Positions 18,570 through 41,668 of a DNA stretch of 64,000 bases are shown here, piece by piece. The DNA is taken from the IMG/VR virus record IMGVR_UViG_3300045988_092720; one strand, 5' to 3'. Position 1 is the stretch's first letter; each line of letters starts with the position of its first letter. The notes beneath the pieces are model-generated. The model saw nothing but the letters and a program-made list of their open reading frames with translations. It had not been told where the DNA came from and did not search any database. This DNA comes from a virus. The position numbers and the translations under genes are program-made.

Positions 18570-18598
18570 AGTCTACCACCCCCTGCTCAGGCTGTCAA
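18570..18598 (-). promoter_or_regulatory. promoter-like TTGACAGC-17-TAGACT inside the 3' end of the polymerase gene
   Basis: Shares the extended -35 TTGACAGC and upstream GTCAGC element with 8255 and 23619; weaker -10. Confidence 0.35.
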
Positions 18599-24437: not shown

Positions 24438-24879
24438 TCAAATCCCAACGCATATCAGGGTCATCATCATAGATAGAATACCCGTCAATAATTGCCCAGT
24501 CATTGTGTGTTTTAAAATGTTCTTTATCAATTTCCCAACCTTTAGCATCAGCAATGGTTTTAACAATCATAGCCATTTTATTAACTTGTGCATCAGTTGG
24601 TGGAACAGTTCCCCATCTAACATTTCCTTCTGTATCTACGCTTGCATCTGCACAGCAAAGAATAGATACACCAATATTACCTGTATTACGATGCCATGTA
24701 TGTTTACCAGTAGCATCAAAACTGTTAAAATCAGACCATACACGCCCATCACCTAAAATATTTAAGTGGTAGTAAGGGGAGGTATTTTCATACCCCCCAC
24801 CACTCCAATGTAAGGTTACTTGGTCGGCATGGCAATTAGCTGCTAAATAAGCAATATCATTTAGAGTATAAAAAGCCAT
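24346..24879 (-). CDS. N-acetylmuramoyl-L-alanine amidase (amidase_2/PGRP, T7-lysozyme-like) endolysin
   Basis: LHWSGGG...TWHRNTGNIGVSILC...IDKEHFKTHND pattern of Zn amidase_2; no cell-wall-binding domain. Confidence 0.6.
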   Translation of the reverse strand: MAFYTLNDIAYLAANCHADQVTLHWSGGGYENTSPYYHLNILGDGRVWSDFNSFDATGKHTWHRNTGNIGVSILCCADASVDTEGNVRWGTVPPTDAQVNKMAMIVKTIADAKGWEIDKEHFKTHNDWAIIDGYSIYDDDPDMRWDLIALPQEDGDGGAIIRGKAIWYHYHPEECKD

Positions 24880-27800
24880 TATTCCTCCTCAATACCGTCA
24901 TATAAACCATCAACAAATGTGTTATAAACATTAGCTTGTTCCTTGACCTTATCAGCCTCCACGGAAGATTTTTTAGGTAAGTATTTATTAGCCTTGTCAA
25001 TCGCAGACATTTGTTTCAATTCTCTTGCATCTCTAAGCTGTTTGCCAGTTACACCAAAGTCTTTAATACGTTGTTTGTTTTCTGGAGATGGGTCACGCAA
25101 GAAGTCATTAATAGCTTCTTTCTTCCCATCTTTAAGCTCTTGATTTGCCATAGTAAGTCTATAAGCTAAATCATTTTCTATAGACTCACGAACAGGTCTG
25201 AAACCTAACAATTTCATAAAACGCTCTTCAGATGTATATGCACCTTTATTTTCAGCATTTTTCCAGTCACGCATATTACCAGTGTATGCTTGATAGAAGT
25301 TGCCAAGTTGTGGAGATAACGCATGACTTACGCCTGTTACTACATCTCGCCAATCATGACTATTCCTAGCCACATCGCCAAGAGCACCATACGTAGATAA
25401 TGTAGGACCTAGTAATTCGCTACCACTACTAGGTGTTAAATCACCAAAGCCAACATTTCGGCTAAAGTCAACTCCAAACATAGATGGTGCACCCATAATA
25501 GCCATCATCGCTATACGTTGTTTAGTTTGGTCTTTACCAGCCCAATCATACAACACATCTTTTGTTCTATCTGTTAAGCCTTTACCTGTTAGCCATTTTA
25601 ACATATCATCGCCAGCACTCATGAATGGTAACCCCATAAAGCCAGCCATACCCATTGTAATACCAATAAAGCGACTTAATCCTTTATAGTCAATGGAGCC
25701 ATCAGGACCTTTGAATGCTGTAAATAAGAACTCAGCTTCCTTAACACCGAACTTCTTAAATTGCAAGATAGTTTTACCTAGTGTACCAAACTTAGTAAAT
25801 AACTGTGGAGAGTCAATATCTGTATAGTCAAAGTTTGTTTTAACTACGAAATCTTTGGCATATTCCATAGCCTTTTTATAAGCCTCTGGATTTTTAGTGT
25901 GTAAATCAGTAGTGTCTAAACCGTGTTTAGCAGCGTATTCTTCGTATGCGTGAATAGCAGCAACCTTACGAGTATAAGCATCGGCTTTCATAAAGCCTTT
26001 CATAGAAAGGTCAAATAATTTACCGAATTTAACTCCACCGATTGTAATTCTGCGATAATCTCCACTATCTAAGAATTCAGATGCTTGGCTTGCACTTTCT
26101 TCATACACTTCTAAATCATCAAATAATTGACCATATTTACCGTTTTTGCCACTCTTACCAGCTTGTTGCATAGCGTATTTTAATTGTGGCGTAAAGCCTG
26201 TTAAAGCTGCTACGTTAGCTAAAGTACCAAACTGTGCGATAGCGGCAGTAGGTCTAAATACACCTAATTTGAATACAGCCATAGCTTGCATATTACGGTT
26301 AAGAAGTGTTGTTACCCAATTATCACCCATATGTTTTGTCATATAGGCACCGATAAATGGAATTTCACGACCGATAGTATTTAATACCTTATCAGTATTA
26401 TTTGGTGCACCTATTACACGTTGAATATAGTTATGGACAATATCTTGTCGTGCGTTTTTAGCACCTGTACCATTACGACCGTATTGTTTTTCATAATTCT
26501 CACCATATACTTGTTCATAGTAACGTGTAGCAAAATCTAAGAATGGAGCATTGCCTTGATACTTCGCTTGTGTATTTGCATAATGGTAAATCGCTTTAAT
26601 ATGGTCTTCATTATGACCAAGCACGCCAGCACGTTTAAGATTATGCTTATTCCACATTTGAGCACCAGAACTACGGTATAAATATGCACTAACATTATCG
26701 TGTGTTAATACGCCATCTTTATCTTTCTTTAAGAGCTTTTCAAAGTTAGCCATACCAGCTTCTTTTTGTAGTTTTTTATAATCTAAACCAAGCTCTTTCA
26801 TACGTTCTTTGTTGTTAATTAGGTTTTGGAAATCATCATAAGTCATTGACTTATCTTTACCTTTTAGGAAGTGGTCAATGAATTTCTTAGTTTCTGTATA
26901 ATTACCTTGTACACGATTGAATAATGCTGCGGCATCCTCATCAGACATACGCTCATATACCTTATGTAATTCAGCTTCTTCATCTGTTAAGTTCGAATAG
27001 TAACCATCATAAGATTTAGATGCATCTGCTTGATATCTTTCTCTACGAATAGTCATGTAACCAACACCTTTTTCAACAGGTCTTGAGTCTACATATTTAT
27101 TCGCATCAGCTTCTGTATCAAAAGAAGTTAGTACCGTATACTGAGGGTAATATCTACCAGTTTCTGGGCTATACTTAACTTCCATTTTGTAAACACCATA
27201 ACGCTTATGCTCACGTGGAATATAGCCCCATAAGTCAGCAGATGGGTCCTTACCTCGTGATACTTGGTTGTCATTTACGTCTTTATGGATTTGGTTAAGT
27301 ACTTGGCGAATACCAACATATTTATCCCACAACCTTTCACTATAGCCTAAGTGTTTAGCATACGCTTTAGACATTTCCATTGCCACCTTGTTTGCATTAG
27401 CTTTATCTTTGTAGGAAGGGATATTTTCCTTACTAGAGATTACTTGGTATACATCCTTATTAACGCCAATATAAACATGATTACCTTTTTCTCTTTCAGC
27501 TTTTACAAACTTACGCATACGCTTATCGTCAGCTAAACCAAATTCCGTGAATGTATCTTCTGGTTTGATAATGGCGTATTTTAATTCACCGTTTAAATTA
27601 ACTGCTACTGGTTGAGCAAATTCACGACCACGTTTATCTACTTCACCTAATAGCTCATTCATTTTTTTATCTTCACCATTTTTTACATCCAAATCTGCAA
27701 ACTGTTTATCAAGCAGTTGCACATATTCAGTTTTCTTGCGACGATATGTGCGAGCGGCTACATATGCCTCTTTAATGATTGGCTTTAATTCTGGGATTAA

Positions 27801-30800
27801 TTTACGTGCCATAGATGATGGAGATTGTAACATTTTACGGAACCATGCAAAAGATATACCGTCTTCTGATGGATTGATACGCTCAATAATACCACCGCCA
27901 TTTTCCATAATGTCAGCAAGTAATTTTTGTTCAGCTTGGTCAATTCTGTCATTCTTTCTAATTGAATAATCAGTATCTTGCTTAATTTTTGCCAAAACTT
28001 TTGCGATAGGGGCTTCAGGTGTTGTAGTAGCACGATTACGTTGGTGTAATGTATCTAGTTTTTGTACACGTTTTCTATCCGCTAAAGCATCTTGGAAATG
28101 CTCTCTAATTTGTTGTTCACTAAAGATATTTGTATTACCATATGAGAACATTTCATTAATAAACGAATAATATTTTTGGTCTAGTTGTGGATTATTACCA
28201 AGTTTTGGTACCACCATAGCAGCTAAGAATAATTTATCTTTAGTGTCCATAGGGCTATTGATAATAGCTTGTGGTACATCTAAAAAGTCATGTGCGTTTT
28301 GGTTAGCCTGAGCTAGACCCATAATTAATTTTAAGCTGTTTGTGTCGCTTTCTGGATTGTTGATGCTTTGAATAAATTGTCTAATTCTTGTTCGTTGTTG
28401 AGATTTTCCAGCGAGTGCATCAAGGTTTTTACGTCCAAATTTTCCTTGATGTGAAACTGTTCCATCTTCACTTTGATTAGAGCCATCTTTACGTACAACT
28501 CCGAATGCTCTTTTAAGATTTTTAGAGGCACGTTGTATAACATCTTCAACAGACTGTGGGTCGTTTTCGCTGACAGATGCAAGTATTTTACCGTTGCCAA
28601 CTGCTCTGTATATTTCGCCTGCAAGTCCTTCATCTTTTTCAAGCTCCTCTCTCATTAAGTCTAATGTATCATTTACTACATTTTTTAAGTCAGCTGTCTT
28701 AGTAAAGTCAGTTGCACTATGTAATAATTCATGTACAAATGTGTCATTTGTTGGTGTAATATTATCACTTGTGATATATAATCGACCAGTAGATGGCATA
28801 TATGCACCATTAAATTTCAACCCTAATGGGTCATTATTTACTAATCTATCAGCTACATAAATCTCTAAATTAGGATGTGTACGAATATAATTTAATATAG
28901 TTACATACGCTTGTTGGTCGCCATTAACTACGTGCATAATAGATTTTAAGATATTACGCATTTCTCCATTTGTAAGTTTACCTAACCCTTTGGAACGGTC
29001 TGCAACCTTTTTCATGATACCCATTTCAATTTCACTAGGTTCATGGAACTTAGCATTTTTGCTATTAGATACTTTCTTGTCGCCTGTTACAGACATTTGA
29101 ATGTCATTAGTTGGCACAATTGTATATGTATCATCATTAATAATAACTTCATAGCCTAAACGAGAAGTAAGGTCTTTGTGAGATTTAAGGTAATTTTTAC
29201 CATTTTGGTCTAGTAAATCAGCATCAATAACAATGCCTTTGTTTTGACGAGCAACTTCCGCTAGTGCATGGAATGCATAGTCAGCAACTTCACTACCGTT
29301 GTTAAATAACGCTGATGGTACATATTCCGCATTAACTATAATTTTACCATCTTTAATTTCACTATCAATAATATCATTCATGGTGATAACACCCATATCA
29401 TATAAGTAACCATCTAATACTTCTTTAAAGTCGTCAGGGTCAATAAATTCTGGCACTTTAATTTCTACTGGGAATTCTTCACCTAGTTTGATATCCATTT
29501 TAATATCTGTGGTATAGATATCACCTTGATAGTTAGGAATAGATGCATGTAAAACTCCGTCTTTATAAGCACTCAATCGTAAAGCCGTAGACACTTGATT
29601 TTTTGTCTTTTTGTCTTTTAATTTTTCTTCTGTGATTTTAGAGTTTTTGCTAATGCGGTCATCCATAACCTCTGTAACAACGTCTTTGATTTCACTATAT
29701 ACACGTTTAGCTAATGGAGAATTAATATTATGTAGACGTGGTGCACCATTTGGGAATAGTTTCTTGGCACCTACTCTGCCAGCCATTGATTTATATTTGT
29801 TCTCATTACCAATAGCAGGATAAAGATGTACTGCACGATTGACTAATCTACCTAGCAAATGGTCGCCATTTGGATTGTCAAGTTCTTCCATCAACTTATC
29901 CATGCCAATAGCTTTAACACGTGTCAAACCTTTTTGAAGTGCGTTAAGAATGATAAAATTACGCATTCTATCATATCGACTAGCTTGCGTAACATCTGAA
30001 ATATTATAATCTTTGTCGAACCATAAACGAATATTTTCATCAAAATGACTAGGGCTATTCAAGAAAGCATTCAATACAACTTGAGGTATTTTTACTTCAC
30101 CACGATTAACAGCTTCCATTAACTCACGTTGAGATGGGATTTTATAATCAGGTACATTATTGAGAATACCCTTCCAAGCTGGAGCATACATTGGTTCTTT
30201 ACGCATTAATTGATTACGCTTAGCAATAATACCGTTGAGTATTTTACGGTATTCAGACTTGGAAATAAATGGATGACTATGTAAATATTGAATAGCATCG
30301 GCAATACTATTAATAATATCCATATGTTTTTCCATAACCGCTTGTTCATCTTTAATATTATCACTAATGTCGATATCACCAGTATCTTCGTTCGCTTGAT
30401 GTTTCAAATATTCTCTGAATGCCTGTTTCTCTTTTTTACCTTTATCCGTTTCCATTTGCAAGTCATCAACCATTTTTAATGCATCGACTTCGTTGATTTG
30501 TCCGCCACTTTGGATTTGAGATTTTAATTCAGCTAATTTTTCAACGTCTCGCATTACAGCTTTTTGGTCGTCAGTGACCATGTCAACAGTTCTAGGACCC
30601 CTAGGTCTAGTTTGTTTTTTAGGTTTTGGTTGGGCTGGATTTAAGCCTAGTCGTTCTTCATATGGAGTAACAATAGGTTCTTCGCCTGTAGGATTGTCAT
30701 GTTCGATAGTTTCTGTGTGGTCTTTTTTAACTGGTCTTGCTTCCCATTTTTTATTTGGGTTTGGTACAATAACATTATACGGACCAATATTACCACCAAG

Positions 30801-33260
30801 CACATCATTATTTGCATTTCTATATTTTAGAGCCTCTTTAGTGAGTGGCATTTTCATGCCAGTTTCACGACCAGTATGAGATAGATATTGCTGTATTTTC
30901 AATAAACCATCACGTGTTACTCTATCACTATTTAGATAATCGGCAATCATTTGGTCATCACCAGCGATATTACGGTCAGATGTTGCTAATTGTGTGTTAT
31001 TAACAACTTTTTCTGGCGTGCCATTCGGACGTACTGCAACTTGTGAGTTTTTTCTACGTGTTTCTTCTGCACTACGTTTAGCTTCATCAATGTTAGCTTG
31101 TAACATTCTGCGTTCGTTAGTAGTTAAGATTTTACGTACGTTATCAAATTGAGGTCCAGTAACATCAATACCATTTGCACCTAAAGTAATAAGTGTATCT
31201 TTGATTTTACTAGCAAGAGCGTGTTTTGCTGGTAAATAATTTGCATCATCTTTTGGAGGAAGTGTATTAATTACTTCTTCCATTTTTTCAGCAACATCAC
31301 GGTTTTCGATATAGCTTTTAGCACTGTCCTGTGTACGCTCTGTATTATCCATGTGTTTAACATAGTTTGTAATACGACCAAGCTCTTCATTTGTATAGCC
31401 ATTTCTTGATTTAATACCAGCTTTAGCTAAATAGTTACGTGGGTTTTTGGCTTGTTCATTGCGTCGAATATCAGAGCTATTAGCATCACGTTTACGTGCT
31501 TGCATTGCATTATGTACACGATACGCTGCATCTCTTGCTTTGATTGGGTTATCTTTATATTCATGCTCAAAGTATGTTTTATTTGGAGAATTCTCATATC
31601 GTTCATTATGATATGCATTTCTACGTTCATTAATAGCATCAAGCTGAGCTTGGAAAGCATTCTGCTTTTCTCTTTCTTGAATTCTATTTGTAATATCACG
31701 CACAGATGTTTGGTCAGGGTTTTCACGTTCAAGGTTAGAGCGTTCTGCTTCTGTTAATTCAATACCAAGTCTATCAGCTTTTTCAGCAAGAGTTTCTTCT
31801 TGTGGTTGCTCCTGAACAGATGGTTCTTCTACTACTTCATTAGAACGTGTCATATCTTCATATAAACTACGAGAAAGTAAATTTGCTTCTTTGTTGGTAA
31901 AACCTAAATTAGCAAAGTTCTCAGCAAACATACGAGGAGATAAATCTTCAGCAGTTTTATCACCATGCAAGCCCATAATATTAGCACGCTCATCTTGTAC
32001 AGCTTCCATTGCTGCCGCATAGTCTTCTGGTGCTTTTTTATTCAATACTTGGTTTACAGAATTAGCGAAAGAACTTTCTTCCATCATTGGGGAATATGAA
32101 GCGTTAGAAATATCATCAACCTCTGTATTACCAAGAGGTGTATTATCAATAAATGTAGGTTCTTCAGCAACGATATCGCCTAAACCATCGTTTTGAACTA
32201 TAGGTCCTGCACTATCAGCAATAACATCTTCAGTTGATGTTAAGCCAGCCATTTCGTCAGCTTTATTTATGATTTTATTAGAAGCACCACGAACAGCACC
32301 ACCTACACCGCCTACAGCCATGGAGATGTTAAATGCGTCCTGTGCTGCCATATTCATATCATTGGTCCATGTAGATGGGTCTAACATAGATACTTGGTCA
32401 TAGCCCTCTTGACCTTTAATACGACCTTCAATAGCTTGTTGCCATGCTTCTGTATAGCCTTCTACTGCACTGTTAGCTGCATTACTAAGTAAACCTTTAA
32501 CCATTAGTTTACCGCCGTCTTTAGCAAATGCACTAGCTAACATGCCAACCTTACCAGATACACCGATACGGTCAGCTGCATAATCTAACATTGCAGGTCC
32601 CCAACCCTCACTCATAGATTGTCTAAAAGCATCACCTGCTACATCTGTGCCATACCCTGCATTACGATAATCATTGTAAATAGAGCCAGCATTTTGTACG
32701 TTCTCAAGACCAGAACCTACTGCAAGTTCTGTACCGTATTTAGCTACTTTACTTAAACCAGTAGCAACAGAGCCAGCTAATCCCTCAGATACGCCAGCTC
32801 TTGCTAATAAACCACCAATTTTACCTGCGTTTAAAATACCAGCAGTAGTACCGCCTGTAGACATAGCCATAGCTACTTGCGGAACGACATTACCGACAAA
32901 TTGACCACCTTGAGCCGCCCAATAGTGAGGATTTGTAACTTTATCTCCCCATGATAAATCAGCAGTATCTGGGATTGTACTTCTGTAAGCTGCTAGATTA
33001 GAATAGTAATTAGCTTCGTTTTCAGTTTTCCCACGTAGCCATTGTGCTGTATCGCTGTCAGATAGGGATAATCCATAAGATACCGCACCTAACATATCAG
33101 AACCTAAGCGGTCTAAACCAGCACTAAAGTTACCTACAAATTCATCAGCAATGCCATCATAATGTGCCTTGCCCATATAATCATATCCAAGAGTAGCAAG
33201 GTTATTACGATACTGGGCATCAGCATTTCTACTGGCTAACCCGTCTGTCCAATTTGCCAT
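24879..33260 (-). CDS. giant virion protein (2793 aa), either tape-measure-like or an ejected internal protein, with HEXXH motif
   Basis: 8.4-kb uninterrupted ORF; Gly/Ala-rich N-terminus; VHELLHSATDF (HEXXH at 28719-28733); Gly/Met-rich hydrophobic C-terminal segments; sits between the tail-lysozyme gene and the endolysin. Confidence 0.6.
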   Translation of the reverse strand: MANWTDGLASRNADAQYRNNLATLGYDYMGKAHYDGIADEFVGNFSAGLDRLGSDMLGAVSYGLSLSDSDTAQWLRGKTENEANYYSNLAAYRSTIPDTADLSWGDKVTNPHYWAAQGGQFVGNVVPQVAMAMSTGGTTAGILNAGKIGGLLARAGVSEGLAGSVATGLSKVAKYGTELAVGSGLENVQNAGSIYNDYRNAGYGTDVAGDAFRQSMSEGWGPAMLDYAADRIGVSGKVGMLASAFAKDGGKLMVKGLLSNAANSAVEGYTEAWQQAIEGRIKGQEGYDQVSMLDPSTWTNDMNMAAQDAFNISMAVGGVGGAVRGASNKIINKADEMAGLTSTEDVIADSAGPIVQNDGLGDIVAEEPTFIDNTPLGNTEVDDISNASYSPMMEESSFANSVNQVLNKKAPEDYAAAMEAVQDERANIMGLHGDKTAEDLSPRMFAENFANLGFTNKEANLLSRSLYEDMTRSNEVVEEPSVQEQPQEETLAEKADRLGIELTEAERSNLERENPDQTSVRDITNRIQEREKQNAFQAQLDAINERRNAYHNERYENSPNKTYFEHEYKDNPIKARDAAYRVHNAMQARKRDANSSDIRRNEQAKNPRNYLAKAGIKSRNGYTNEELGRITNYVKHMDNTERTQDSAKSYIENRDVAEKMEEVINTLPPKDDANYLPAKHALASKIKDTLITLGANGIDVTGPQFDNVRKILTTNERRMLQANIDEAKRSAEETRRKNSQVAVRPNGTPEKVVNNTQLATSDRNIAGDDQMIADYLNSDRVTRDGLLKIQQYLSHTGRETGMKMPLTKEALKYRNANNDVLGGNIGPYNVIVPNPNKKWEARPVKKDHTETIEHDNPTGEEPIVTPYEERLGLNPAQPKPKKQTRPRGPRTVDMVTDDQKAVMRDVEKLAELKSQIQSGGQINEVDALKMVDDLQMETDKGKKEKQAFREYLKHQANEDTGDIDISDNIKDEQAVMEKHMDIINSIADAIQYLHSHPFISKSEYRKILNGIIAKRNQLMRKEPMYAPAWKGILNNVPDYKIPSQRELMEAVNRGEVKIPQVVLNAFLNSPSHFDENIRLWFDKDYNISDVTQASRYDRMRNFIILNALQKGLTRVKAIGMDKLMEELDNPNGDHLLGRLVNRAVHLYPAIGNENKYKSMAGRVGAKKLFPNGAPRLHNINSPLAKRVYSEIKDVVTEVMDDRISKNSKITEEKLKDKKTKNQVSTALRLSAYKDGVLHASIPNYQGDIYTTDIKMDIKLGEEFPVEIKVPEFIDPDDFKEVLDGYLYDMGVITMNDIIDSEIKDGKIIVNAEYVPSALFNNGSEVADYAFHALAEVARQNKGIVIDADLLDQNGKNYLKSHKDLTSRLGYEVIINDDTYTIVPTNDIQMSVTGDKKVSNSKNAKFHEPSEIEMGIMKKVADRSKGLGKLTNGEMRNILKSIMHVVNGDQQAYVTILNYIRTHPNLEIYVADRLVNNDPLGLKFNGAYMPSTGRLYITSDNITPTNDTFVHELLHSATDFTKTADLKNVVNDTLDLMREELEKDEGLAGEIYRAVGNGKILASVSENDPQSVEDVIQRASKNLKRAFGVVRKDGSNQSEDGTVSHQGKFGRKNLDALAGKSQQRTRIRQFIQSINNPESDTNSLKLIMGLAQANQNAHDFLDVPQAIINSPMDTKDKLFLAAMVVPKLGNNPQLDQKYYSFINEMFSYGNTNIFSEQQIREHFQDALADRKRVQKLDTLHQRNRATTTPEAPIAKVLAKIKQDTDYSIRKNDRIDQAEQKLLADIMENGGGIIERINPSEDGISFAWFRKMLQSPSSMARKLIPELKPIIKEAYVAARTYRRKKTEYVQLLDKQFADLDVKNGEDKKMNELLGEVDKRGREFAQPVAVNLNGELKYAIIKPEDTFTEFGLADDKRMRKFVKAEREKGNHVYIGVNKDVYQVISSKENIPSYKDKANANKVAMEMSKAYAKHLGYSERLWDKYVGIRQVLNQIHKDVNDNQVSRGKDPSADLWGYIPREHKRYGVYKMEVKYSPETGRYYPQYTVLTSFDTEADANKYVDSRPVEKGVGYMTIRRERYQADASKSYDGYYSNLTDEEAELHKVYERMSDEDAAALFNRVQGNYTETKKFIDHFLKGKDKSMTYDDFQNLINNKERMKELGLDYKKLQKEAGMANFEKLLKKDKDGVLTHDNVSAYLYRSSGAQMWNKHNLKRAGVLGHNEDHIKAIYHYANTQAKYQGNAPFLDFATRYYEQVYGENYEKQYGRNGTGAKNARQDIVHNYIQRVIGAPNNTDKVLNTIGREIPFIGAYMTKHMGDNWVTTLLNRNMQAMAVFKLGVFRPTAAIAQFGTLANVAALTGFTPQLKYAMQQAGKSGKNGKYGQLFDDLEVYEESASQASEFLDSGDYRRITIGGVKFGKLFDLSMKGFMKADAYTRKVAAIHAYEEYAAKHGLDTTDLHTKNPEAYKKAMEYAKDFVVKTNFDYTDIDSPQLFTKFGTLGKTILQFKKFGVKEAEFLFTAFKGPDGSIDYKGLSRFIGITMGMAGFMGLPFMSAGDDMLKWLTGKGLTDRTKDVLYDWAGKDQTKQRIAMMAIMGAPSMFGVDFSRNVGFGDLTPSSGSELLGPTLSTYGALGDVARNSHDWRDVVTGVSHALSPQLGNFYQAYTGNMRDWKNAENKGAYTSEERFMKLLGFRPVRESIENDLAYRLTMANQELKDGKKEAINDFLRDPSPENKQRIKDFGVTGKQLRDARELKQMSAIDKANKYLPKKSSVEADKVKEQANVYNTFVDGLYDGIEEE

Positions 33261-33275
33261 TTAGTTCACTCCTTT

Positions 33276-34634
33276 TTATCCTGTATAAGCGGTTTGTTTT
33301 TCAACCCCCCATGCTTTAGCTTTAGCATCTTGGTCATACTTTTGCCAACCTAATACAGTTTGAATAGCATCTCTACCCTCTACTGTATCTTTATAAGGGG
33401 ATAATTTATCAATAATTTGTTGAGTTGTTTTTGTAACATTACCATTCCAGCCATCGTAGGAAGTTTGTGCCCAGTCAGCATCAGATGCTTCTGTGAACAT
33501 ACCTTGACCCTCTGCTAAGATTTTAGCAATGTCTTTTTGATGTGCAATAGTAGCACGTGGTTGACCCTCAGCATCTAAATACGAACCATCAGGTAGTTTA
33601 CTACCAGCTCCAGAACGAGCACCTGCTCTAATACTCGCTGTAGATAATGCTTGTTGCATTTTCATATTTTGTAATGCCTTTTGTTGTTCAAACTGCATAT
33701 TTGCCAATTCTTTTTTCTGAGCAAACGCTGTTTGTTGGTCTTGCAATGCTTGTTGACGTTTCATGTTAGCTAATGCCATTTGATTACTGTTCATGTAACG
33801 GTCAGCCATTGGGTCTAAACGTACACCTAAAGATGCACCTAGACTAGCTAACATTTTACTATTAGAGCTATTATGACTATTAGCAATCATTTGAGCTAGT
33901 TGACCTGCATTAGTTAATTTCTGTGTATTATTAGCTGTATTAGCCGCCGATACTGCTTGGTTTACTAATGCTTTCATTTGGTCAGCATTGTTTTTACTTA
34001 ATGCAGTTCCCATTTCTCCAAAGTAAGAGGAATTACGTAAGCCAGCAATTCTACCAGCTTGTGTTGCACGAGCAGCTTCTACTTCTGGACTAGCCACTTG
34101 ATAGTTCATTAAAGTTTGAATTTTATCCCAATCAAGTTTTTCATTTGGGTCATCAAATGCAAAACCCTGTGCATTTGGGTTATTATTTTGTAACCTCACC
34201 ATTGACGTAGGCGAGCCTGCTTGAGAAAATGCCTCACGTGCTGCATTTGTTCTGTGAGATAAATCAGTATCTGCACTCTTTTCAAAGTTATCATGGAACC
34301 ATACAGCAGCTTCTTCTGGTGTTTGCAGTTGGTTGAGTGCATTGATGCCTTCTGGACCAAGCTCTTTTAACATGTATTGGATTTGAGCCTCTGGTGTACC
34401 AGAAGAAATACCTAAAGACTTGGCAAATTCTGCCAAGCCTCTTTGTCTACCTTCGTCGGTCCATTGGAATAAACCGTAACCATGTGTACCATTAATAGGT
34501 ATTTCATTTGCACTGCCACCACCTTGAATAATAGTTGGGTCCATATTAGACTCCATCATACTATTACCAATAATGCCAGCTGCTGCCGCAGGAGTTAGTC
34601 CGTAACCTTGGAGCAATCCCATGTAGTCAGACAT
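33276..34634 (-). CDS. phage tail/tip lysozyme-like protein (N-terminal muramidase-like domain + Q/N-rich region)
   Basis: N-terminal GIIGNSMMESNMDPT...GTHGYGLFQWTD resembles the phage tail lysozyme family. Confidence 0.45.
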   Translation of the reverse strand: MSDYMGLLQGYGLTPAAAAGIIGNSMMESNMDPTIIQGGGSANEIPINGTHGYGLFQWTDEGRQRGLAEFAKSLGISSGTPEAQIQYMLKELGPEGINALNQLQTPEEAAVWFHDNFEKSADTDLSHRTNAAREAFSQAGSPTSMVRLQNNNPNAQGFAFDDPNEKLDWDKIQTLMNYQVASPEVEAARATQAGRIAGLRNSSYFGEMGTALSKNNADQMKALVNQAVSAANTANNTQKLTNAGQLAQMIANSHNSSNSKMLASLGASLGVRLDPMADRYMNSNQMALANMKRQQALQDQQTAFAQKKELANMQFEQQKALQNMKMQQALSTASIRAGARSGAGSKLPDGSYLDAEGQPRATIAHQKDIAKILAEGQGMFTEASDADWAQTSYDGWNGNVTKTTQQIIDKLSPYKDTVEGRDAIQTVLGWQKYDQDAKAKAWGVEKQTAYTG

Positions 34635-34642
34635 AGTACCTC

Positions 34643-35101
34643 CTATTTAATATTTTGTGTTAAACCACCATATGCTTGCCAATAATTAGGAAAATCTTGA
34701 TAGTTTTGGTCATGTACTCGCAAACCTTGGTTAGCTTGACCGTAACCTTTAATGTAATCAATCGCACCAGTGTTATTTGTTAAAGCACCATCAATTGTGT
34801 CGGCATTTAAGCCAAATGCATTACGATACCCACGACCAGCTAAATCAGCTTGAATACCTAATGCTTGTTGCTGTAATCCTTTATTAGTAGCATATTCTGG
34901 GTTTTGATATAAACCTTGTAAGTTTGTTAAGCCAGATGTAAAACCTTGTTGACGAGCCAATTCTTCTTTTTGTGCTTGGTTATTAGCCTCACGCAAAGCA
35001 CCTCTATCAAGTCGGTTATTAAACATCATACCACCGATAAGACCTGCTAATTTCCCTAATTGGGTTTGCCAATCGTTATCTTGTGTTTGAATTACTTGCA
35101 T
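34643..35101 (-). CDS. Q/N/G-rich hypothetical virion protein (152 aa)
   Basis: Low-complexity Q/N/G-rich ORF. Confidence 0.4.
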   Translation of the reverse strand: MQVIQTQDNDWQTQLGKLAGLIGGMMFNNRLDRGALREANNQAQKEELARQQGFTSGLTNLQGLYQNPEYATNKGLQQQALGIQADLAGRGYRNAFGLNADTIDGALTNNTGAIDYIKGYGQANQGLRVHDQNYQDFPNYWQAYGGLTQNIK

Positions 35102-35110
35102 ATTTACCTC

Positions 35111-36166
35111 CTAAAACGACTCTGCGTAAATGCCCTCTGCCAAGAACATATTGTCGTCTGTGTCTAATACTAATTCATAGACTTCTTCTTTATCATCAGT
35201 TTCAAGAATGAATGCGACCTTTTCAAAGCCATCAGCCGTCTCCACTCTATCTTTACTTGTAATTTCAGATAAAGCCTTGCGACCATTCTTCGTTTGAAAC
35301 ACCTCTGTATCAGTTGTGCGAAGTTTATGATTAGTCGTAACGAGTAAGAAGATAGGTTGGATACCCATGTTTCTGTTTTCTGTTACAGTTGCTTCCCCAT
35401 TGCGTGTTTTAACTTTATCTCCCTCTTGTACTTCAACAATTGGTTTTTCTGTTCCATCAGCCATTGTAACCAATACATAACGAGGGAAGCATGCAATGAT
35501 TGAACCAGCTAAGGATAATGCACCACCTAAGAAGCCACCACTAGAAGATTGAGTTGCGAATGTTCTACCATTATTCAACTGACCTTGAGTTTGTAATGCT
35601 TGGTTAGTGGATTGGCTTTGACCCTGTGCCAAAGACAAAGAGTTTTGTACAGGAGTAAACGATGCTTGATGTGCTTTCTGTGCGTATTCGATAGGGGTAG
35701 AAGCATATTTCATACGTTGGTCCATTAAGCCAGCCGCTGTTTTCAAGTTATTATCATAATCCTGAGACATTTGTGATGCAAAGTTCTTTTGCACGTCATT
35801 TGTAGTTGTATTAAATCTGGAGCTATCAATAACACCACGTTGAGCTAGAGATGCTAAATTCTTACCCATTGTATTTTCATACATGCGATTAAAGTAATTT
35901 TGTTTTGCATTTGCAAATACATCTGGTAAAATACCTTGGCTAAGAGGAGTAAACTCGTTCTTAATTTGTTGCATTTCGGCTGTTTGGTCATTATATAATT
36001 TTTGCCAATCAGGTGTAACAATATTACCAATTTGATTTGTACCATAATTTACTAACGCATCAATACTGGGTTGAATAGAGTCTAGGTATCTCCCTTGTAA
36101 CGCTATTAGATGGCGTTCTTCTGGTGTTAGTTGTCGCTCATGAATAGTGGTTTTAGACTTACCCAT
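35111..36166 (-). CDS. virion-module protein with C-terminal Hint (Hedgehog/intein-like) autoprocessing domain
   Basis: Residues 226-351 open with CFPRYVLVTMADGTEKPIVEVQEGDKV (Hint block A, Cys1) and carry the TxxH block (VTTNHKL); the N-terminal part is Q/N-rich. Confidence 0.55.
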   Translation of the reverse strand: MGKSKTTIHERQLTPEERHLIALQGRYLDSIQPSIDALVNYGTNQIGNIVTPDWQKLYNDQTAEMQQIKNEFTPLSQGILPDVFANAKQNYFNRMYENTMGKNLASLAQRGVIDSSRFNTTTNDVQKNFASQMSQDYDNNLKTAAGLMDQRMKYASTPIEYAQKAHQASFTPVQNSLSLAQGQSQSTNQALQTQGQLNNGRTFATQSSSGGFLGGALSLAGSIIACFPRYVLVTMADGTEKPIVEVQEGDKVKTRNGEATVTENRNMGIQPIFLLVTTNHKLRTTDTEVFQTKNGRKALSEITSKDRVETADGFEKVAFILETDDKEEVYELVLDTDDNMFLAEGIYAESF

Positions 36167-36529
36167 CTAAACCTCCTTCGTGAAATAGTAATAAGTGCCA
36201 TTTTTATTTGTACGTTCTTCATAAGAACATTTGGCTAATCTTGCATATGCTTTAGGATTGCGACTGTCAGTATAAGAAGCTATTCGTTTTAATCCTAATT
36301 TTTTAGCCATACTATGAATGCCTTTAAATCCTTCAATCATTGGGACCCCACACCCAATATCTATTTCTAAGGTATCGCCTATGATACCAAATGTTAAGAA
36401 AGAACCATCCTCTCTTAACCATACCATTGGGTGTAGCTCATAATCCCAGTCGTCTAGGTAATGTCTACCTACACGCCTTTTATATTCATCAATATGTTTT
36501 TGTATATTAGCTGTAAGGGCTACCGCCAT
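36167..36529 (-). CDS. hypothetical protein (120 aa)
   Basis: ORF. Confidence 0.4.
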   Translation of the reverse strand: MAVALTANIQKHIDEYKRRVGRHYLDDWDYELHPMVWLREDGSFLTFGIIGDTLEIDIGCGVPMIEGFKGIHSMAKKLGLKRIASYTDSRNPKAYARLAKCSYEERTNKNGTYYYFTKEV

Positions 36530-38006
36530 TTTTATGAGCTCCTTTCAGAAAATCATTTTGGCTTCTACCCTTTCTACGTTTTCTCCTATTTTGTCCACCT
36601 TTAGTATCTGCGGAGGCACTTACCATCGACTCTCTCTCAACTACAATATCGAAAGAAATATACTTAAAGATGATTGGGTCATCAGTTTCAAAACGGAATT
36701 TCAAGATAGGAGCGAGAATTTGTGTCTTAAATTCTCCTTGTAACTCTTTAACGGCCCATTTATGAGTTAATTGTACATCGTTAATGTAAATATACCCACG
36801 ACCGTCATTCTCTTCAGATTGGATATCAATATACGTTCTATATGCATTAAGGTTATGAGTGTCTCTCATTTCCTTCGATTGAATAAGTTGATGAATGGCG
36901 TAACCATTGTCAGTTGTATATTTAAAATCAAATTCGTAAATTGCACCATGAGTGTCGTCTGTGTTCATGGCTACCAATACATGATATTGGTTTTCACAAA
37001 TTGATGTAACATTATAAGGGAAAATCCATTTAGTATATCCACCAGTCCAGTAATGATATACAAACATTTCACGACCACACGAACCGCTTACTACCATCTG
37101 TTTTGTTCTACGCAAATCAGAAATAAATGGTTTGGTAACATTATTTTTAAGTTCTGGGTTGATGTTATCACCAATATCCATAACATTAAAGTTTGCATAT
37201 ACTTGAGAACTTTTAACAGATTTTAGACCACGAGTAGAAACGAATACAATATCAGTATTAATATTATCGCAAGCATGTCTACTTACTACATCAGAATTAT
37301 TAGCAAGCAATGTAATTGACCATTCTTCTGGTTCGTTTTGAACGTCGTAAATATAGCCATTACTTTTGAATACCAATACATCAGAAGCTAATTCAGCTAT
37401 AGCAACAATATCCCCACCGTCACCATAACCAATATTAACATCTTTTCGTGCAGAAGCATCGTTACTATTTTCATTCCAGCTATTCACATCACCAATAGCA
37501 GAATATATTAGTAAATCGGAGCCAGTTTTGGCTACAACTACACGAGATGAACGTGTAAATACAATATCGCAATTAGGACTACCATCAATTGTTTTAAGTG
37601 TTTGATAATTATATTCTTGTAACTTAGAGCCACTTGCAATAAGTAAAGAACCTTTCCATTTACAACAAGAAGGGCGTTCCGCATCTCCATTAATTTTACC
37701 AATTAATATTGGTTGTTTGCCAAATTCATATCTGTATACTTCTTTGTTTTTAAGAAATATGAAGAAATCATTCATTTCGTAATCATTGTATACATGTGTA
37801 ACAGGAGAATTGAAAGAAGCTAGAGGGGTACTTAAACCCCTCCGTGTTCTTAATTTACTACCTACTACATCGAATTCCATGTTTTCTAGGCGAACAACTT
37901 CATTATCTTTGATAAACTCAGGAGACTTGGCAATATTCATGCCACCAGTTAAATCATCTAATTTAACGGTAACAATTTTTTTAGTTTTGCCACGTTTTTG
38001 AGCCAT
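36507..38006 (-). CDS. hypothetical virion structural protein (499 aa)
   Basis: Large beta-rich ORF in the structural operon. Confidence 0.45.
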   Translation of the reverse strand: MAQKRGKTKKIVTVKLDDLTGGMNIAKSPEFIKDNEVVRLENMEFDVVGSKLRTRRGLSTPLASFNSPVTHVYNDYEMNDFFIFLKNKEVYRYEFGKQPILIGKINGDAERPSCCKWKGSLLIASGSKLQEYNYQTLKTIDGSPNCDIVFTRSSRVVVAKTGSDLLIYSAIGDVNSWNENSNDASARKDVNIGYGDGGDIVAIAELASDVLVFKSNGYIYDVQNEPEEWSITLLANNSDVVSRHACDNINTDIVFVSTRGLKSVKSSQVYANFNVMDIGDNINPELKNNVTKPFISDLRRTKQMVVSGSCGREMFVYHYWTGGYTKWIFPYNVTSICENQYHVLVAMNTDDTHGAIYEFDFKYTTDNGYAIHQLIQSKEMRDTHNLNAYRTYIDIQSEENDGRGYIYINDVQLTHKWAVKELQGEFKTQILAPILKFRFETDDPIIFKYISFDIVVERESMVSASADTKGGQNRRKRRKGRSQNDFLKGAHKNGGSPYS

Positions 38007-39137: not shown

Positions 39138-40316
39138 CTAAGCATTTAATCTATCAACGGCTTGTTTTAGAAGAGTTAAATCCTCCTCGTACTTAGCCTT
39201 AGAAATAAAATTATCGTCTACTTCTTTTTTTGTATAAAGAGTTTTAGAGTCTGTTTCTAAATCTTTAGTAGTTAATAAGGAGCGAGATTTAGAACCGTCC
39301 CACCATGTAACACGAGATGCAGATAACGCTAAAGGTTTATCTTTATGACCTGCCTCAACACCATTACCTCTGGAAAGTTTAATTAAGCTCCATTCCGTAC
39401 CAGATGTATCTTTGCCTGTTAATGGCACATTATTCTCTAATGGTGTAATACTTGGCGGAGTATAGTTAATGTTATTGAAATACTTAGTATTAGCACTGTG
39501 TTTATATACTTCAACCTTGCCATTGTTATTAGCTGTGAAATATACCTCGCCATTAGCGATAGCAAAATCTTCAACCTCAAGTGCAGATGTTACTTCTGTA
39601 TTAGTAACACTATCTTCTAAGTTTTCGATAATATAGCCACCAACAGAGAATACAATACTCTTCCCATTATATAACGCACCGTTTGTATCTTGGCTAGTAG
39701 AGATAATTGGAATTGTTGCAGTGTTTTCCAACGCTCTATTTTCATTATAATACTGAACTGTTCGTTGCTTAGTAGTGCTAGTATACAGAATAGAAACAAA
39801 CTTATTCGCCGTTTTGTCGTAAGCTAAGTTAAACACCTTATTAGGGAAGTTTACAGTACCTTCAATAGCCATGTCAGTAGTCATAACAGCTACTTGGTTA
39901 GGATTTACAGCACCATTAGTTACATAGATTTTACCTTTGTAAGCACACAATGTATTGCAATGACCCAATCTATTTTTATCTGTAAATGTTTGCTTAGACA
40001 TTAAGGTGGAAAAGTCAGCATTGTATTTATAGAATACTTGTTTGGTATTATCATTATTTACACAAGCAATATAGAAAGCATTCGCTTCTTCACTATATGT
40101 AAATCCTTGACATTGGTTTACACCACTATCTAAAGGAATTTCTAATACCTTAACAATGTTATCTGCACTCTTGAATAATGTCGGTGCAGAGCCTTTAAGA
40201 CTTTTAATGAAGTCAGCTTCTGTGCCTGTATTACCAAGCTCTAACCAAGATTGATAAGCACTTTTACCAACATCGCCCTTAGGACCTTTAATATTACCTA
40301 ATTTAACTCTTGGCAT
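39138..40316 (-). CDS. tail fibre/receptor-binding-like protein (392 aa)
   Basis: N-terminal GNIKGPKGDVGKSAY fibre-like motif; beta-rich; adjacent to the collagen-like fibre gene. Confidence 0.45.
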   Translation of the reverse strand: MPRVKLGNIKGPKGDVGKSAYQSWLELGNTGTEADFIKSLKGSAPTLFKSADNIVKVLEIPLDSGVNQCQGFTYSEEANAFYIACVNNDNTKQVFYKYNADFSTLMSKQTFTDKNRLGHCNTLCAYKGKIYVTNGAVNPNQVAVMTTDMAIEGTVNFPNKVFNLAYDKTANKFVSILYTSTTKQRTVQYYNENRALENTATIPIISTSQDTNGALYNGKSIVFSVGGYIIENLEDSVTNTEVTSALEVEDFAIANGEVYFTANNNGKVEVYKHSANTKYFNNINYTPPSITPLENNVPLTGKDTSGTEWSLIKLSRGNGVEAGHKDKPLALSASRVTWWDGSKSRSLLTTKDLETDSKTLYTKKEVDDNFISKAKYEEDLTLLKQAVDRLNA

Positions 40317-41668
40317 TACTGACCTCCTTCCCAGAAACCAACAATATCTAAAATGTAGCGTTTGTTATTACCTGCTACGCCCCAACCTTTGATATTACGA
40401 GAGTTAGGCTCAACGTAAACGCTATTATTATTGGCATCAATAGATACTTCTAATAACCGTTTAGGAACAGGAGAACTATTAGGTAATGTACATAATACAC
40501 CACCATTACCAGAACCATTACCAGTTACTTTCATATCTAAGTGCAATTTGCCGAAGCCTGTAGCAGGGTTGAATTCGAGATAACCCCGACCATTACCTGC
40601 GGCTCCTGCCTGTGCAACACCCCACACAACATCGTATGTTTTAACTGCACTTGTATTTACAGCATTAGGTGCAACAGCATTACTAGGTGCAAGGTTAGAA
40701 TAAGCAATATCTACAAACAAATCACCATTTTCATCTAGTGTAAATGTTAATTCTGGTTGCGTACCATTATCGCCTTTATCCCCCTTAGGACCTGTGGGAC
40801 CTATGTCACCTTTCGGTCCTCGTTCTCCTGCTTCTCCTTTTGGTCCTACGTTACCTTGTGGTCCTTGTGGTCCTACATTACCTTGTAAACCTTGTGGACC
40901 ATCTACACCTCTAGGTCCTTGTGGACCAGTAGGACCTATTGGACCTTGTGGACCAATATCGCCTTTGTCACCTTTTACGCCAGACATAGTAATGAGGTAT
41001 TCCATTACTCCGCCATTTTTAACAAATACTTTACCGTTATCGGCATCATTAGAACGAACCATAACTAAGCTGTATTCAGAGAATGTGGAAGCGTTGTTAT
41101 GCACAGATGCTACAGATGGTTGGATAGAGCTGATTTTAAAAGGCTCCCCTCGTTCACCTCTTGGACCTTGTAAGCCAGTAGGACCGATAGGACCTATAGG
41201 ACCACGCTCACCCTGTACGCCACGAGGACCTTGTGGACCAATTTCCCCACGTATACCTTGAATACCTTGCAAGCCTTGAGGGCCGATAGGACCAACATCA
41301 CCACGTTCACCTTTAGGACCTGCTTCACCACGTTCGCCGTTATCCCCTTTAGGTCCAATAGGACCTGCGGGACCAGTTGGTCCAGTTAGACCTTGTGGAC
41401 CTACATCACCTTTTGGACCCGCTTGACCATCGTTACCTTTTGGACCAGTTAAACCTCTAGGACCTTCTGGACCCATAGGACCTTGAGAGCCATCTTCCCC
41501 TTTAGGACCTGCTTCACCTTTAGGTCCTTTTAGTTTTTCCAATTGTTCTGGCGTAAAGTCTTCAAACTTAAAGTCTTTGCCATTTTTGCCATCTTTCCCA
41601 TCACGATTGTGATTAATCGTAATACTAGGAGAAGAGGGTTGGATAATTTTAATAATTTTGTCAGCCAT
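40316..41668 (-). CDS. collagen-like repeat tail fibre protein (450 aa)
   Basis: Two long Gly-X-Y tracts ([25 protein letters not shown]..., [16 protein letters not shown]...). Confidence 0.65.

Follow-up and report, generated by a model that had tools for sequence, protein, structure and literature searches.

What does a Hint (Hedgehog/intein-type) domain do at the end of a phage virion-module protein? The question is posed by a gene at positions 35111–36166 of a 64,000-nucleotide stretch of DNA from the virus record IMGVR_UViG_3300045988_092720, which we call the window; the gene, like every other feature located below, lies on the minus strand. Read to its stop codon, it encodes a protein of 351 amino acids in which a helical N-terminal domain is followed by a C-terminal Hint domain. 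We favour, at a probability of roughly 0.55, the reading that the first Hint residue, Cys226, forms a thioester leading to N-terminal self-cleavage, by which a 225-residue helical virion protein would be released and for which the Hint domain would be a removable cap.

The preliminary description of this locus assigned the last 126 residues of the 351-residue protein, at 35114–35491, to a Hint module joined at an Ala–Cys junction to a Q/N-rich segment, and in these respects it was accurate. The open reading frame (ORF) and the mapping are exact: residues 226–351, for which the evidence comes from profile, AlphaFold2 (AF2) model, Foldseek and the ratio of non-synonymous to synonymous substitution rates (dN/dS), occupy 35114–35491, and the other strand of this interval holds no rival ORF of at least 50 amino acids. 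The Ala225 codon (GCA) directly precedes that of Cys226 (TGC, 35489–35491), the residue at Hint position A:1 (block A, position 1) and the presumed nucleophile; the scissile bond would be the one between Ala225 and Cys226. The N-terminal domain, residues 1–225 (35492–36166), is all-helical in the AF2 model and rich in Q, N and S, although the Q/N enrichment is moderate (Q 11.6%, N 8.4%); homologues of 222–270 residues that lack a Hint domain span the same part. It closes with a Gly/Ala-rich hydrophobic tail, residues 210–225 (35492–35539, GGFLGGALSLAGSIIA), which abuts the junction. The exact 351-residue protein was found on 8 public contigs, up to 67 kb in length.

Residues 226–351 form a real Hint domain, well beyond chance. 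A profile built from 13 family Hint domains (alignment A2) matched, among PDB sequences, the inteins gp41-1 (E = 1.1e-10), Npu DnaB (3.5e-8) and Ssp DnaB (9e-8), as well as the bacterial intein-like (BIL) domain 2lwy (1e-6) and Tetrahymena BIL2. The AF2 model of the domain has a pLDDT score (predicted local distance difference test) of 93.7 and shows the disk-shaped all-beta fold of the HINT superfamily, with the termini meeting at the active centre. In Foldseek comparisons it aligned with the Ssp DnaB mini-intein 1mi8 at a template-modelling (TM) score of 0.90 and a root-mean-square deviation of 1.6 Å, with Tetrahymena BIL2 at 0.87 and with Hedgehog (1at0) at 0.76. There were 54 PDB matches at E ≤ 1e-3, and all of those among the matches listed are Hint proteins. 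The profile E-value of 1.1e-10 and the structural matches bear out the claim of a C-terminal Hint domain that starts with block A, and supply the profile similarity on which that claim depended.

Pfam, which the preliminary description had named as a check, gave scores on either side of its thresholds. Five Hint-clan families matched block A of the whole protein and nothing beyond it, all below threshold (PF01079, 25.3 bits against a threshold of 29.7; Vint, 22.9 against 27). With the isolated domain as query, Vint just passed (27.5 against 27) and PF01079 reached 27.6 against 29.7. Among the 13 family Hint domains, 11 matched Hint_2 at E ≤ 0.01 and 2 weakly touched PF07591. The A2 profile itself matched 15,469 of 1.84 billion representative proteins at E ≤ 1e-3. 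The domain was probably derived from mini-inteins, to which it is closest by sequence.

Automated pipelines already recognise the domain, under names such as 'Hint' and 'Hint domain-containing protein', and NCBI nr already lists close relatives as 'MAG TPA: Hint [Caudoviricetes sp.]'. One family member of 359 residues (P0047) is named 'MAG TPA: replicative DNA helicase' there, almost certainly a mis-annotation arising from the likeness of its Hint domain to DnaB inteins. The best profile matches outside the family (P0058, P0060–P0062 and many others) are secreted proteins with 3–5 tandem canonical Hint domains, each with T-x-x-H and His-Asn and joined by short Gly linkers (...FAVHNKGG-CFLPGT...), an architecture unrelated to that of the phage protein.

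The catalytic positions had to be reassigned. The motif VTTNH, which had been taken for the T-x-x-H block, is not block B: alignments place the block B Thr and His opposite T285 and E288. In an hhalign comparison, Thr70 of the Ssp DnaB intein pairs with T285 and its catalytic His73 with E288; the numbering of the Ssp DnaB sequence used there fits the PDB title 'H73A', and PDB-derived HMMER alignments to Npu DnaB and gp41-1 concur in setting block B opposite T285-D-T-E288. The true block B turn is therefore T285-D286-T287-E288 (35303–35314), with Thr at B:7 and Glu replacing His at B:10. T277-T-N-H280 (35327–35338) is a hairpin turn, in which N279-H280 align with the 'LG'/'DG' turn of inteins; these two residues are not conserved in distant members, and the His column holds His in 44 of 79 sequences. 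In the model, residues 285–288 (A2 positions 66–69) lie between strands at 62–65 and 70–73, in agreement with the description of B:7 and B:10 as sitting in a beta-turn (PMC4031507).

Further equivalences come from the same hhalign comparison. Glu331 (35174–35176) corresponds to the Asp found at F:4 in most class 1 inteins, VFDL being paired with VYEL, and N339 corresponds to the F:13 His. At the end of the protein, E349-S350-F351 (35114–35122) replaces His-Asn and the +1 nucleophile, with E349 at G:6, S350 at G:7 and F351 at +1. The spatial relation of C226, T285, E288, E331 and E349 to one another is taken from the alignment to inteins.

The pattern is that of the family as a whole. Across 79 distinct Hint-carrying members, reaching down to about 25% identity in the N-terminal domain, Cys at A:1, Phe at A:2 and Thr at B:7 are each present in 79/79. 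B:10 is Gln in 61 and Glu in 18 and never His, and F:4 is acidic in 78/79 (Glu 53, Asp 25). Canonical splicing residues are almost entirely missing, with His at F:13 in a single member and, at G:6, Glu in 72 and His in 1; G:7 is Gly in 65 and Ser in 12, never Asn, and the +1 position is hydrophobic. The residue before the junction is small, being Ala in 50/79. By contrast, among 217 Hint domains outside the family that were found by the same profile, 92% have His at B:10, and 10 of the 18 exceptions also carry a Glu-Gly/Pro ending or a close variant; Gln or Glu at B:10 co-varies with Glu at G:6. Set against the B:10 His outside the family, this residue pattern marks the family, on sequence grounds, as a distinct Hint subfamily. 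All residues for C-terminal cleavage and ligation have been lost in it, and those around the N-terminal scissile bond are retained or exchanged in a fixed manner.

A second line of evidence comes from relatives that lack the domain. Searches with a profile of the N-terminal domain alone returned 83 sequences with a Hint domain and 27 without one; about 24 of the latter are genuine members of the family and not fragments. These proteins, of 222–270 residues, are encoded by complete genes inside contigs and end at the position of the Ala–Cys junction, with the same Gly-rich hydrophobic tail that Hint-carrying forms have before Cys1 (...GIAGSFL and stop, against ...GSFLA-CFP...). A comparable tail stands before Cys1 in nearly all aligned Hint-carrying members and is terminal in nearly all Hint-less ones. 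The neighbours at Hint-less loci are the same (proteins of about 500 and about 120 residues, the gene itself, a small protein, a lysozyme or SLT protein, and a large-to-giant ORF), and no Hint domain is encoded elsewhere in these loci. In a tree of the N-terminal domain the two forms are interleaved. One such pair, P0223 (251 residues, no Hint) and P0227 (383 residues, with Hint), are 93% identical up to the junction and part company within 2 residues of it; their DNA differs by a clean indel some 400 bp long, and homology flanks it on both sides, resuming in the next gene. The window protein's own clade also contains a Hint-less allele (P0014), with an N-terminal domain 89% identical; in it the Hint domain is replaced by a longer Gly/Ala-rich tail (...GAAAGSSFGPWGALAGGVIGGLAST). 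Its source is an 895-base contig, so that the protein is likely complete.

Because the Hint-less orthologues end at the junction, the functional protein would be the N-terminal 225 residues, and residues 1–225 are presumed to be the mature product. The Hint domain itself is, by these comparisons, a dispensable, cassette-like appendix fixed precisely at the C terminus of the N-terminal domain.

The domain is kept under purifying selection. For the window gene and four relatives of 80–90% identity, dN/dS was 0.02–0.22 in the Hint part and 0.06–0.25 in the N-terminal domain; the values are approximate, dS being near saturation. With dN/dS well below 1, a decaying relic is ruled out. The window contains exactly one Hint-coding stretch. 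In the close clade, protein-sequence divergence is faster for the Hint part than for the N-terminal domain (77% against 94% identity for P0004), which fits weaker constraint on surface residues or exchange of the cassette.

We therefore considered what a Hint domain with this complement of residues might do. In the reading we favour, the 351-residue protein is a two-part precursor whose Hint domain would keep only the N-terminal half of intein chemistry. Cys226 would attack the Ala225 carbonyl in an N-to-S acyl shift, assisted by Thr285, Glu288 and Glu331 standing in for Thr B:7, His B:10 and Asp F:4; the thioester would then be hydrolysed, perhaps with Glu349 as the base. This would free a 225-residue protein of the same extent as the Hint-less orthologues, and the 14-kDa Hint domain would be discarded. 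As a removable cap, the domain may hold the hydrophobic tail soluble or inert until assembly. Conservation at the active-site positions across the 79 members argues for such a mechanism.

Several observations weigh against it. The canonical block B histidine is missing, with Glu288 in its place, and it is missing across the whole family, although His B:10 is described as the residue that inteins conserve most strongly and its mutation usually cripples the acyl shift (PMC4031507). The loss of this histidine can be compensated in inteins (PMC6333167), as it is in the Tko CDC21-1 intein (PMC4031507). However, compensation of the steric kind that PMC6333167 describes is not applicable here because the residue at –1 is small. 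The Hint-less alleles demonstrate that the Hint domain is dispensable, not that it is removed, and the N-terminal domain has no match to T7, P22, SU10 or LUZ24 proteins that would give the released product a role. The thioester chemistry cannot simply be assumed; we infer it because Cys1, Thr B:7 and the Asp/Glu at F:4 do not vary.

The setting of the gene bears on what the released protein might be. The genome is that of a short-tailed phage of about 66–68 kb and of the SU10/LUZ24 type, as identified by its portal (PF23899 SU10_portal, 1.7e-157) and major capsid protein (PF17236, 8.8e-70); the nearest cultured portals are those of Photobacterium phage PhCF1.2 (31% identity) and LUZ24-like phages (28.6%). 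In the order of transcription, tail-fibre genes, one of them collagen-like, are followed by genes for proteins of 499 and 120 residues, the Hint gene, and genes for proteins of 152, 452 and 2793 residues. The gene thus lies between the tail-fibre genes and those for the lysozyme-domain and 2793-residue proteins, as expected from its earlier placement in a tail/ejection cluster.

The 499-residue upstream neighbour (36507–38006), whose synteny is kept in Hint-carrying and Hint-less loci, has a weak match to phrog_511 'internal virion protein' (7.2e-5) and could be a tail hub or nozzle or an internal virion protein; no solved relatives were found for it or for a 646-residue neighbour protein. The 120-residue ORF (36167–36529) overlaps the end of the 499-residue gene by 23 bases and matches no family, and its position is strictly kept in Hint-carrying and Hint-less relatives (118–126 residues). 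Downstream lie a Q/N/G-rich protein of 152 residues (34643–35101), kept in close relatives, and a 452-residue protein (33276–34634) with an N-terminal phage tail lysozyme domain (PF18013, 1.7e-27), in whose position Hint-less relatives have an SLT-domain protein. The cluster closes with the 2793-residue protein (24879–33260), for which Pfam and NCBIfam gave no match; relatives have ORFs of 2081–2797 residues in the same place, and it is presumed to be a giant protein of the 'polyvalent' type, either ejected or internal. Elsewhere in the window are a 972-residue DnaE-type DNA polymerase III alpha subunit with PHP, NTPase and finger domains (18587–21505) and a 450-residue tail-fibre protein with collagen triple-helix repeats (40316–41668; PF01391, 1.1e-31). 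The fibre genes beside the latter differ among close relatives, which suggests that they are host-range cassettes.

The N-terminal domain gave few leads of its own. AF2 predicts helices at residues 15–46, 54–76, 82–109 and 116–199, the last of 84 residues, followed by a disordered tail (pLDDT 63.7, moderate). The only hydrophobic segment of the domain is its last 15 residues, GFLGGALSLAGSIIA, and the protein's highest Kyte–Doolittle hydropathy (1.89) falls in windows centred on residues 219–220. A fold search of the domain against the PDB gave generic coiled-coil matches only (E ≥ 0.13), and its profile found nothing meaningful among PDB sequences. The 351-residue protein has no match in PHROGs, NCBIfam or INPHARED, and hhalign and BLASTP comparisons with LUZ24 gp55, gp53, gp56 and gp51 were negative.

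By gene position, the domain could be a tail-needle-like protein or an ejection or internal protein. In SU10 the tail needle gp18, a coiled coil with a C-terminal domain, is encoded after the nozzle, and the ejection proteins encoded after the needle gene include the transglycosylase gp20 (PMC9509320). Needles of the P22/SU10 type are trimeric coiled-coil fibres of about 230–280 residues, encoded after the nozzle or hub gene, in which a C-terminal domain is optional. The 84-residue helix and the gene position are compatible with such a needle, SU10 gp18 for example, with no match in sequence or fold. An ejection protein of the T7 gp14 type was rejected: such outer-membrane ejection proteins have about 200 residues and four to five predicted transmembrane helices, and are encoded beside gp15/gp16-like genes (PMC8954989), whereas the domain has one short hydrophobic segment of about 15 residues and no similarity to LUZ24 gp53.

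Negativicutes, bacteria with an outer membrane, are the probable hosts. A scan of genome contigs with alignment A1 found a full-length relative of 46% identity at one locus, in the assembly of Veillonella sp. VA139, and Mitsuokella and Pectinatus are the named sources of members farther away. The starts of the proteins also differ within the family. Short members begin MG(K/G)(S/G), and longer or more distant ones (P0066, P0075, P0086, P0091, P0092 and P0179; 379–532 residues) begin M..FDLQLFGGGK. Gly2 is nearly invariant, being present in 16/18 sequences of A1, both with and without Hint. The conserved start may mark a processing site that leaves an oligo-glycine N terminus.

An alternative to self-cleavage is that the Hint domain has no catalytic activity and remains part of the protein as a C-terminal knob or plug, or as a packaging or interaction domain; a trimeric tail needle might, for instance, have it as its distal knob, the needles of Sf6 and P22 being the comparison. 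The absence of both canonical histidines favours this reading, and the synteny resembles that of SU10, in which the nozzle is followed by the needle, with its coiled coil and C-terminal domain, and then by the ejection proteins (PMC9509320). Whether a tail needle has a C-terminal domain is known to vary, and many relatives have an acidic tail after the Hint domain that is a potential interaction peptide. We nevertheless consider a dead domain unlikely: conservation is centred on the catalytic positions Cys1, Thr B:7, B:10, F:4 and G:6 and not on the surface, Cys1-Phe2 is invariant in 79/79, and the break with the Hint-less alleles falls 0–2 residues from the scissile bond.

Alternatively, as Hedgehog and BUBL do, the Hint domain might form the thioester and then pass the N-terminal protein not to water but to some other nucleophile. 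Candidate acceptors would be a lysine or N-terminal amine of a virion protein, a lipid amine or an amine of the host envelope; the outcome, at assembly or in infection, would be a Gly-rich tail anchored by a covalent bond. There are precedents: Hedgehog uses cholesterol, and the BIL2 domain of Tetrahymena BUBL makes an isopeptide bond to lysine (PMC8616854). At a TM-score of 0.87, BIL2 is among the best structural matches. The G:6 carboxylate and the Gln/Glu at B:10, which co-vary, make the active site a non-canonical one. Such a site could be suited to a second step of another kind, and it could render the reaction slow or conditional. However, Hint-less orthologues of 93% identity work without a thioester, so attachment cannot be essential; the window protein ends at the fold, with no substrate-recognition region after it, and no acceptor was identified. 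The preliminary description had allowed for either release or transfer. Release is strongly suggested by the Hint-less orthologues that end at the junction, whereas we found no direct support for transfer, which we regard as rather improbable.

A more elaborate proposal, and a speculative one that we hold to be improbable, is that the Hint domain is a slow or triggered thioester generator, intact in the virion, which fires on ejection to anchor the Gly-rich tail covalently. The targets would be an amine or hydroxyl of the host envelope or another ejected protein, and the Hint-less alleles would represent a non-covalent variant. Phosphatidylethanolamine is one candidate, and the polyamine-modified peptidoglycan reported for Negativicutes is another. 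If true, the virus would be fixing its DNA-delivery apparatus by lipidation or anchoring in the style of Hedgehog.

A true intein, or a type A BIL domain that splices or ligates a short C-terminal peptide, is effectively refuted. The closest sequence relatives are mini-inteins (gp41-1 and DnaB), and relatives have 10–60 residues after the Hint domain. However, G:7 is Asn in 0/79, G:6 and F:13 are His in 1/79 each, and the +1 position is hydrophobic; only one residue follows the fold in the window protein, and the Hint-less proteins end at the N-terminal junction with no counterpart of a C-extein. Splicing is excluded because F351 is the last residue and the protein has no C-extein, no His-Asn and no +1 Cys, Ser or Thr, as the preliminary description had recognised in calling this a terminal Hint module and not an intein. 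The notion that the IIA-C junction is a lipobox, with Cys226 kept for lipid modification, can likewise be set aside: junctions such as IIA-C, FLA-C, SLA-C and AIA-C do resemble L-[AS]-[GA]-C, but many members are off-pattern (GF-C, WT-C, IM-C) so that the lipobox rules largely fail across the family, residue 226 is outside any N-terminal signal peptide, and it is with this Cys that a well-folded Hint domain starts.

In the literature on Hint domains in phage virion, ejection or tail proteins we found only true inteins, in terminases and similar proteins, and reviews; we found no paper on such a protein with a terminal Hint domain, nor on a histidine-less subfamily. The family described here comprises at least 79 distinct natural sequences in which Gln or Glu stands at B:10 instead of His, and Glu instead of the penultimate His. 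Should the domain cleave, it would represent an alternative catalytic solution for the N-to-S acyl shift and a compact, 126-residue module for N-terminal cleavage only, of possible biotechnological use. Among published reports we found none in which a protein of the tail tip or ejection module is matured by a Hint domain of its own instead of a prohead protease. If the domain is inactive, it would be an example of the Hint fold recruited as a structural module. In either case, the natural alleles with and without the domain offer a ready-made genetic comparison.

How does the phage domain compare with known Hint systems? Class 1 mini-inteins, such as the cyanophage-like gp41-1 and Ssp and Npu DnaB, are its best matches in sequence and structure and have Cys1, Thr B:7, an acidic F:4 and the backbone motifs of blocks F and G in common with it. 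Unlike them, the phage domain is not inserted in a host protein, has no C-extein, and lacks the B:10, F:13 and G:6 histidines, the G:7 Asn and the +1 nucleophile. Acyl shift without His B:10 occurs, by means of compensating residues, in Tko CDC21-1 and in the engineered Ssp DnaB H73A (PMC4031507, PMC6333167). Those, however, are single exceptions or mutants with Lys58 or a bulky –1 residue, whereas the phage proteins are a whole natural family with Gln or Glu at B:10, Glu at G:6 and a small –1 residue. BUBL BIL2 offers a parallel in the fate of the upstream domain, which its Hint thioester conjugates to an amine (PMC8616854); that is the activity of BIL2, which differs in having a catalytic His69 and a C-terminal Asn and in sitting between ubiquitin-like domains.

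A functional analogy is provided by Peptidase_S74, the self-cleaving C-terminal intramolecular chaperone of phage tailspikes and fibres, which uses a Ser-Lys dyad. It too is a transient C-terminal module that removes itself from a phage virion protein, although its fold and chemistry are unrelated and we found no relation to the phage Hint domain in sequence or structure.

BIL domains of types A and B are closer in habit: they are non-mobile Hint domains in non-essential, variable proteins, without a +1 nucleophile, and favour cleavage over splicing (PMC4031507). Many relatives of the phage domain also match Pfam Hint_2. In the phage family, however, the block B His is replaced and a virion-module protein of a phage is the carrier. 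The C terminus of type A is His-Asn (PMC4031507), whereas the phage protein ends in Glu-Ser-Phe. Type B, which we compared by its description only, is described as lacking similarity to block G, whereas the phage family retains F-x-A-x-G-I-x-x but with Glu-Gly/Ser.

The preliminary description had likened the domain to Hedgehog and to bacterial pretoxin-Hint proteins. The likeness holds for the terminal position of the Hint domain and for Cys1 at the junction; it fails for T-x-x-H, for the sterol region and for the toxin domain that follows the Hint in PT-HINT proteins, nothing following it in the window protein. As in the Hedgehog/Hog system, a C-terminal Hint domain of a two-part precursor has Cys1 at the junction, does not splice and would leave a functional N-terminal product. 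Hedgehog, however, has T-x-x-H and a sterol-recognition region where the phage family has Glu or Gln and the protein ends at the fold, and by sequence the phage domain is nearer to mini-inteins; we found no evidence of Hedgehog-style transfer to a lipid. Taking these comparisons together, the phage Hint domain would work most like Hedgehog/Hog and BIL domains, as a terminal, cleaving and non-splicing module.

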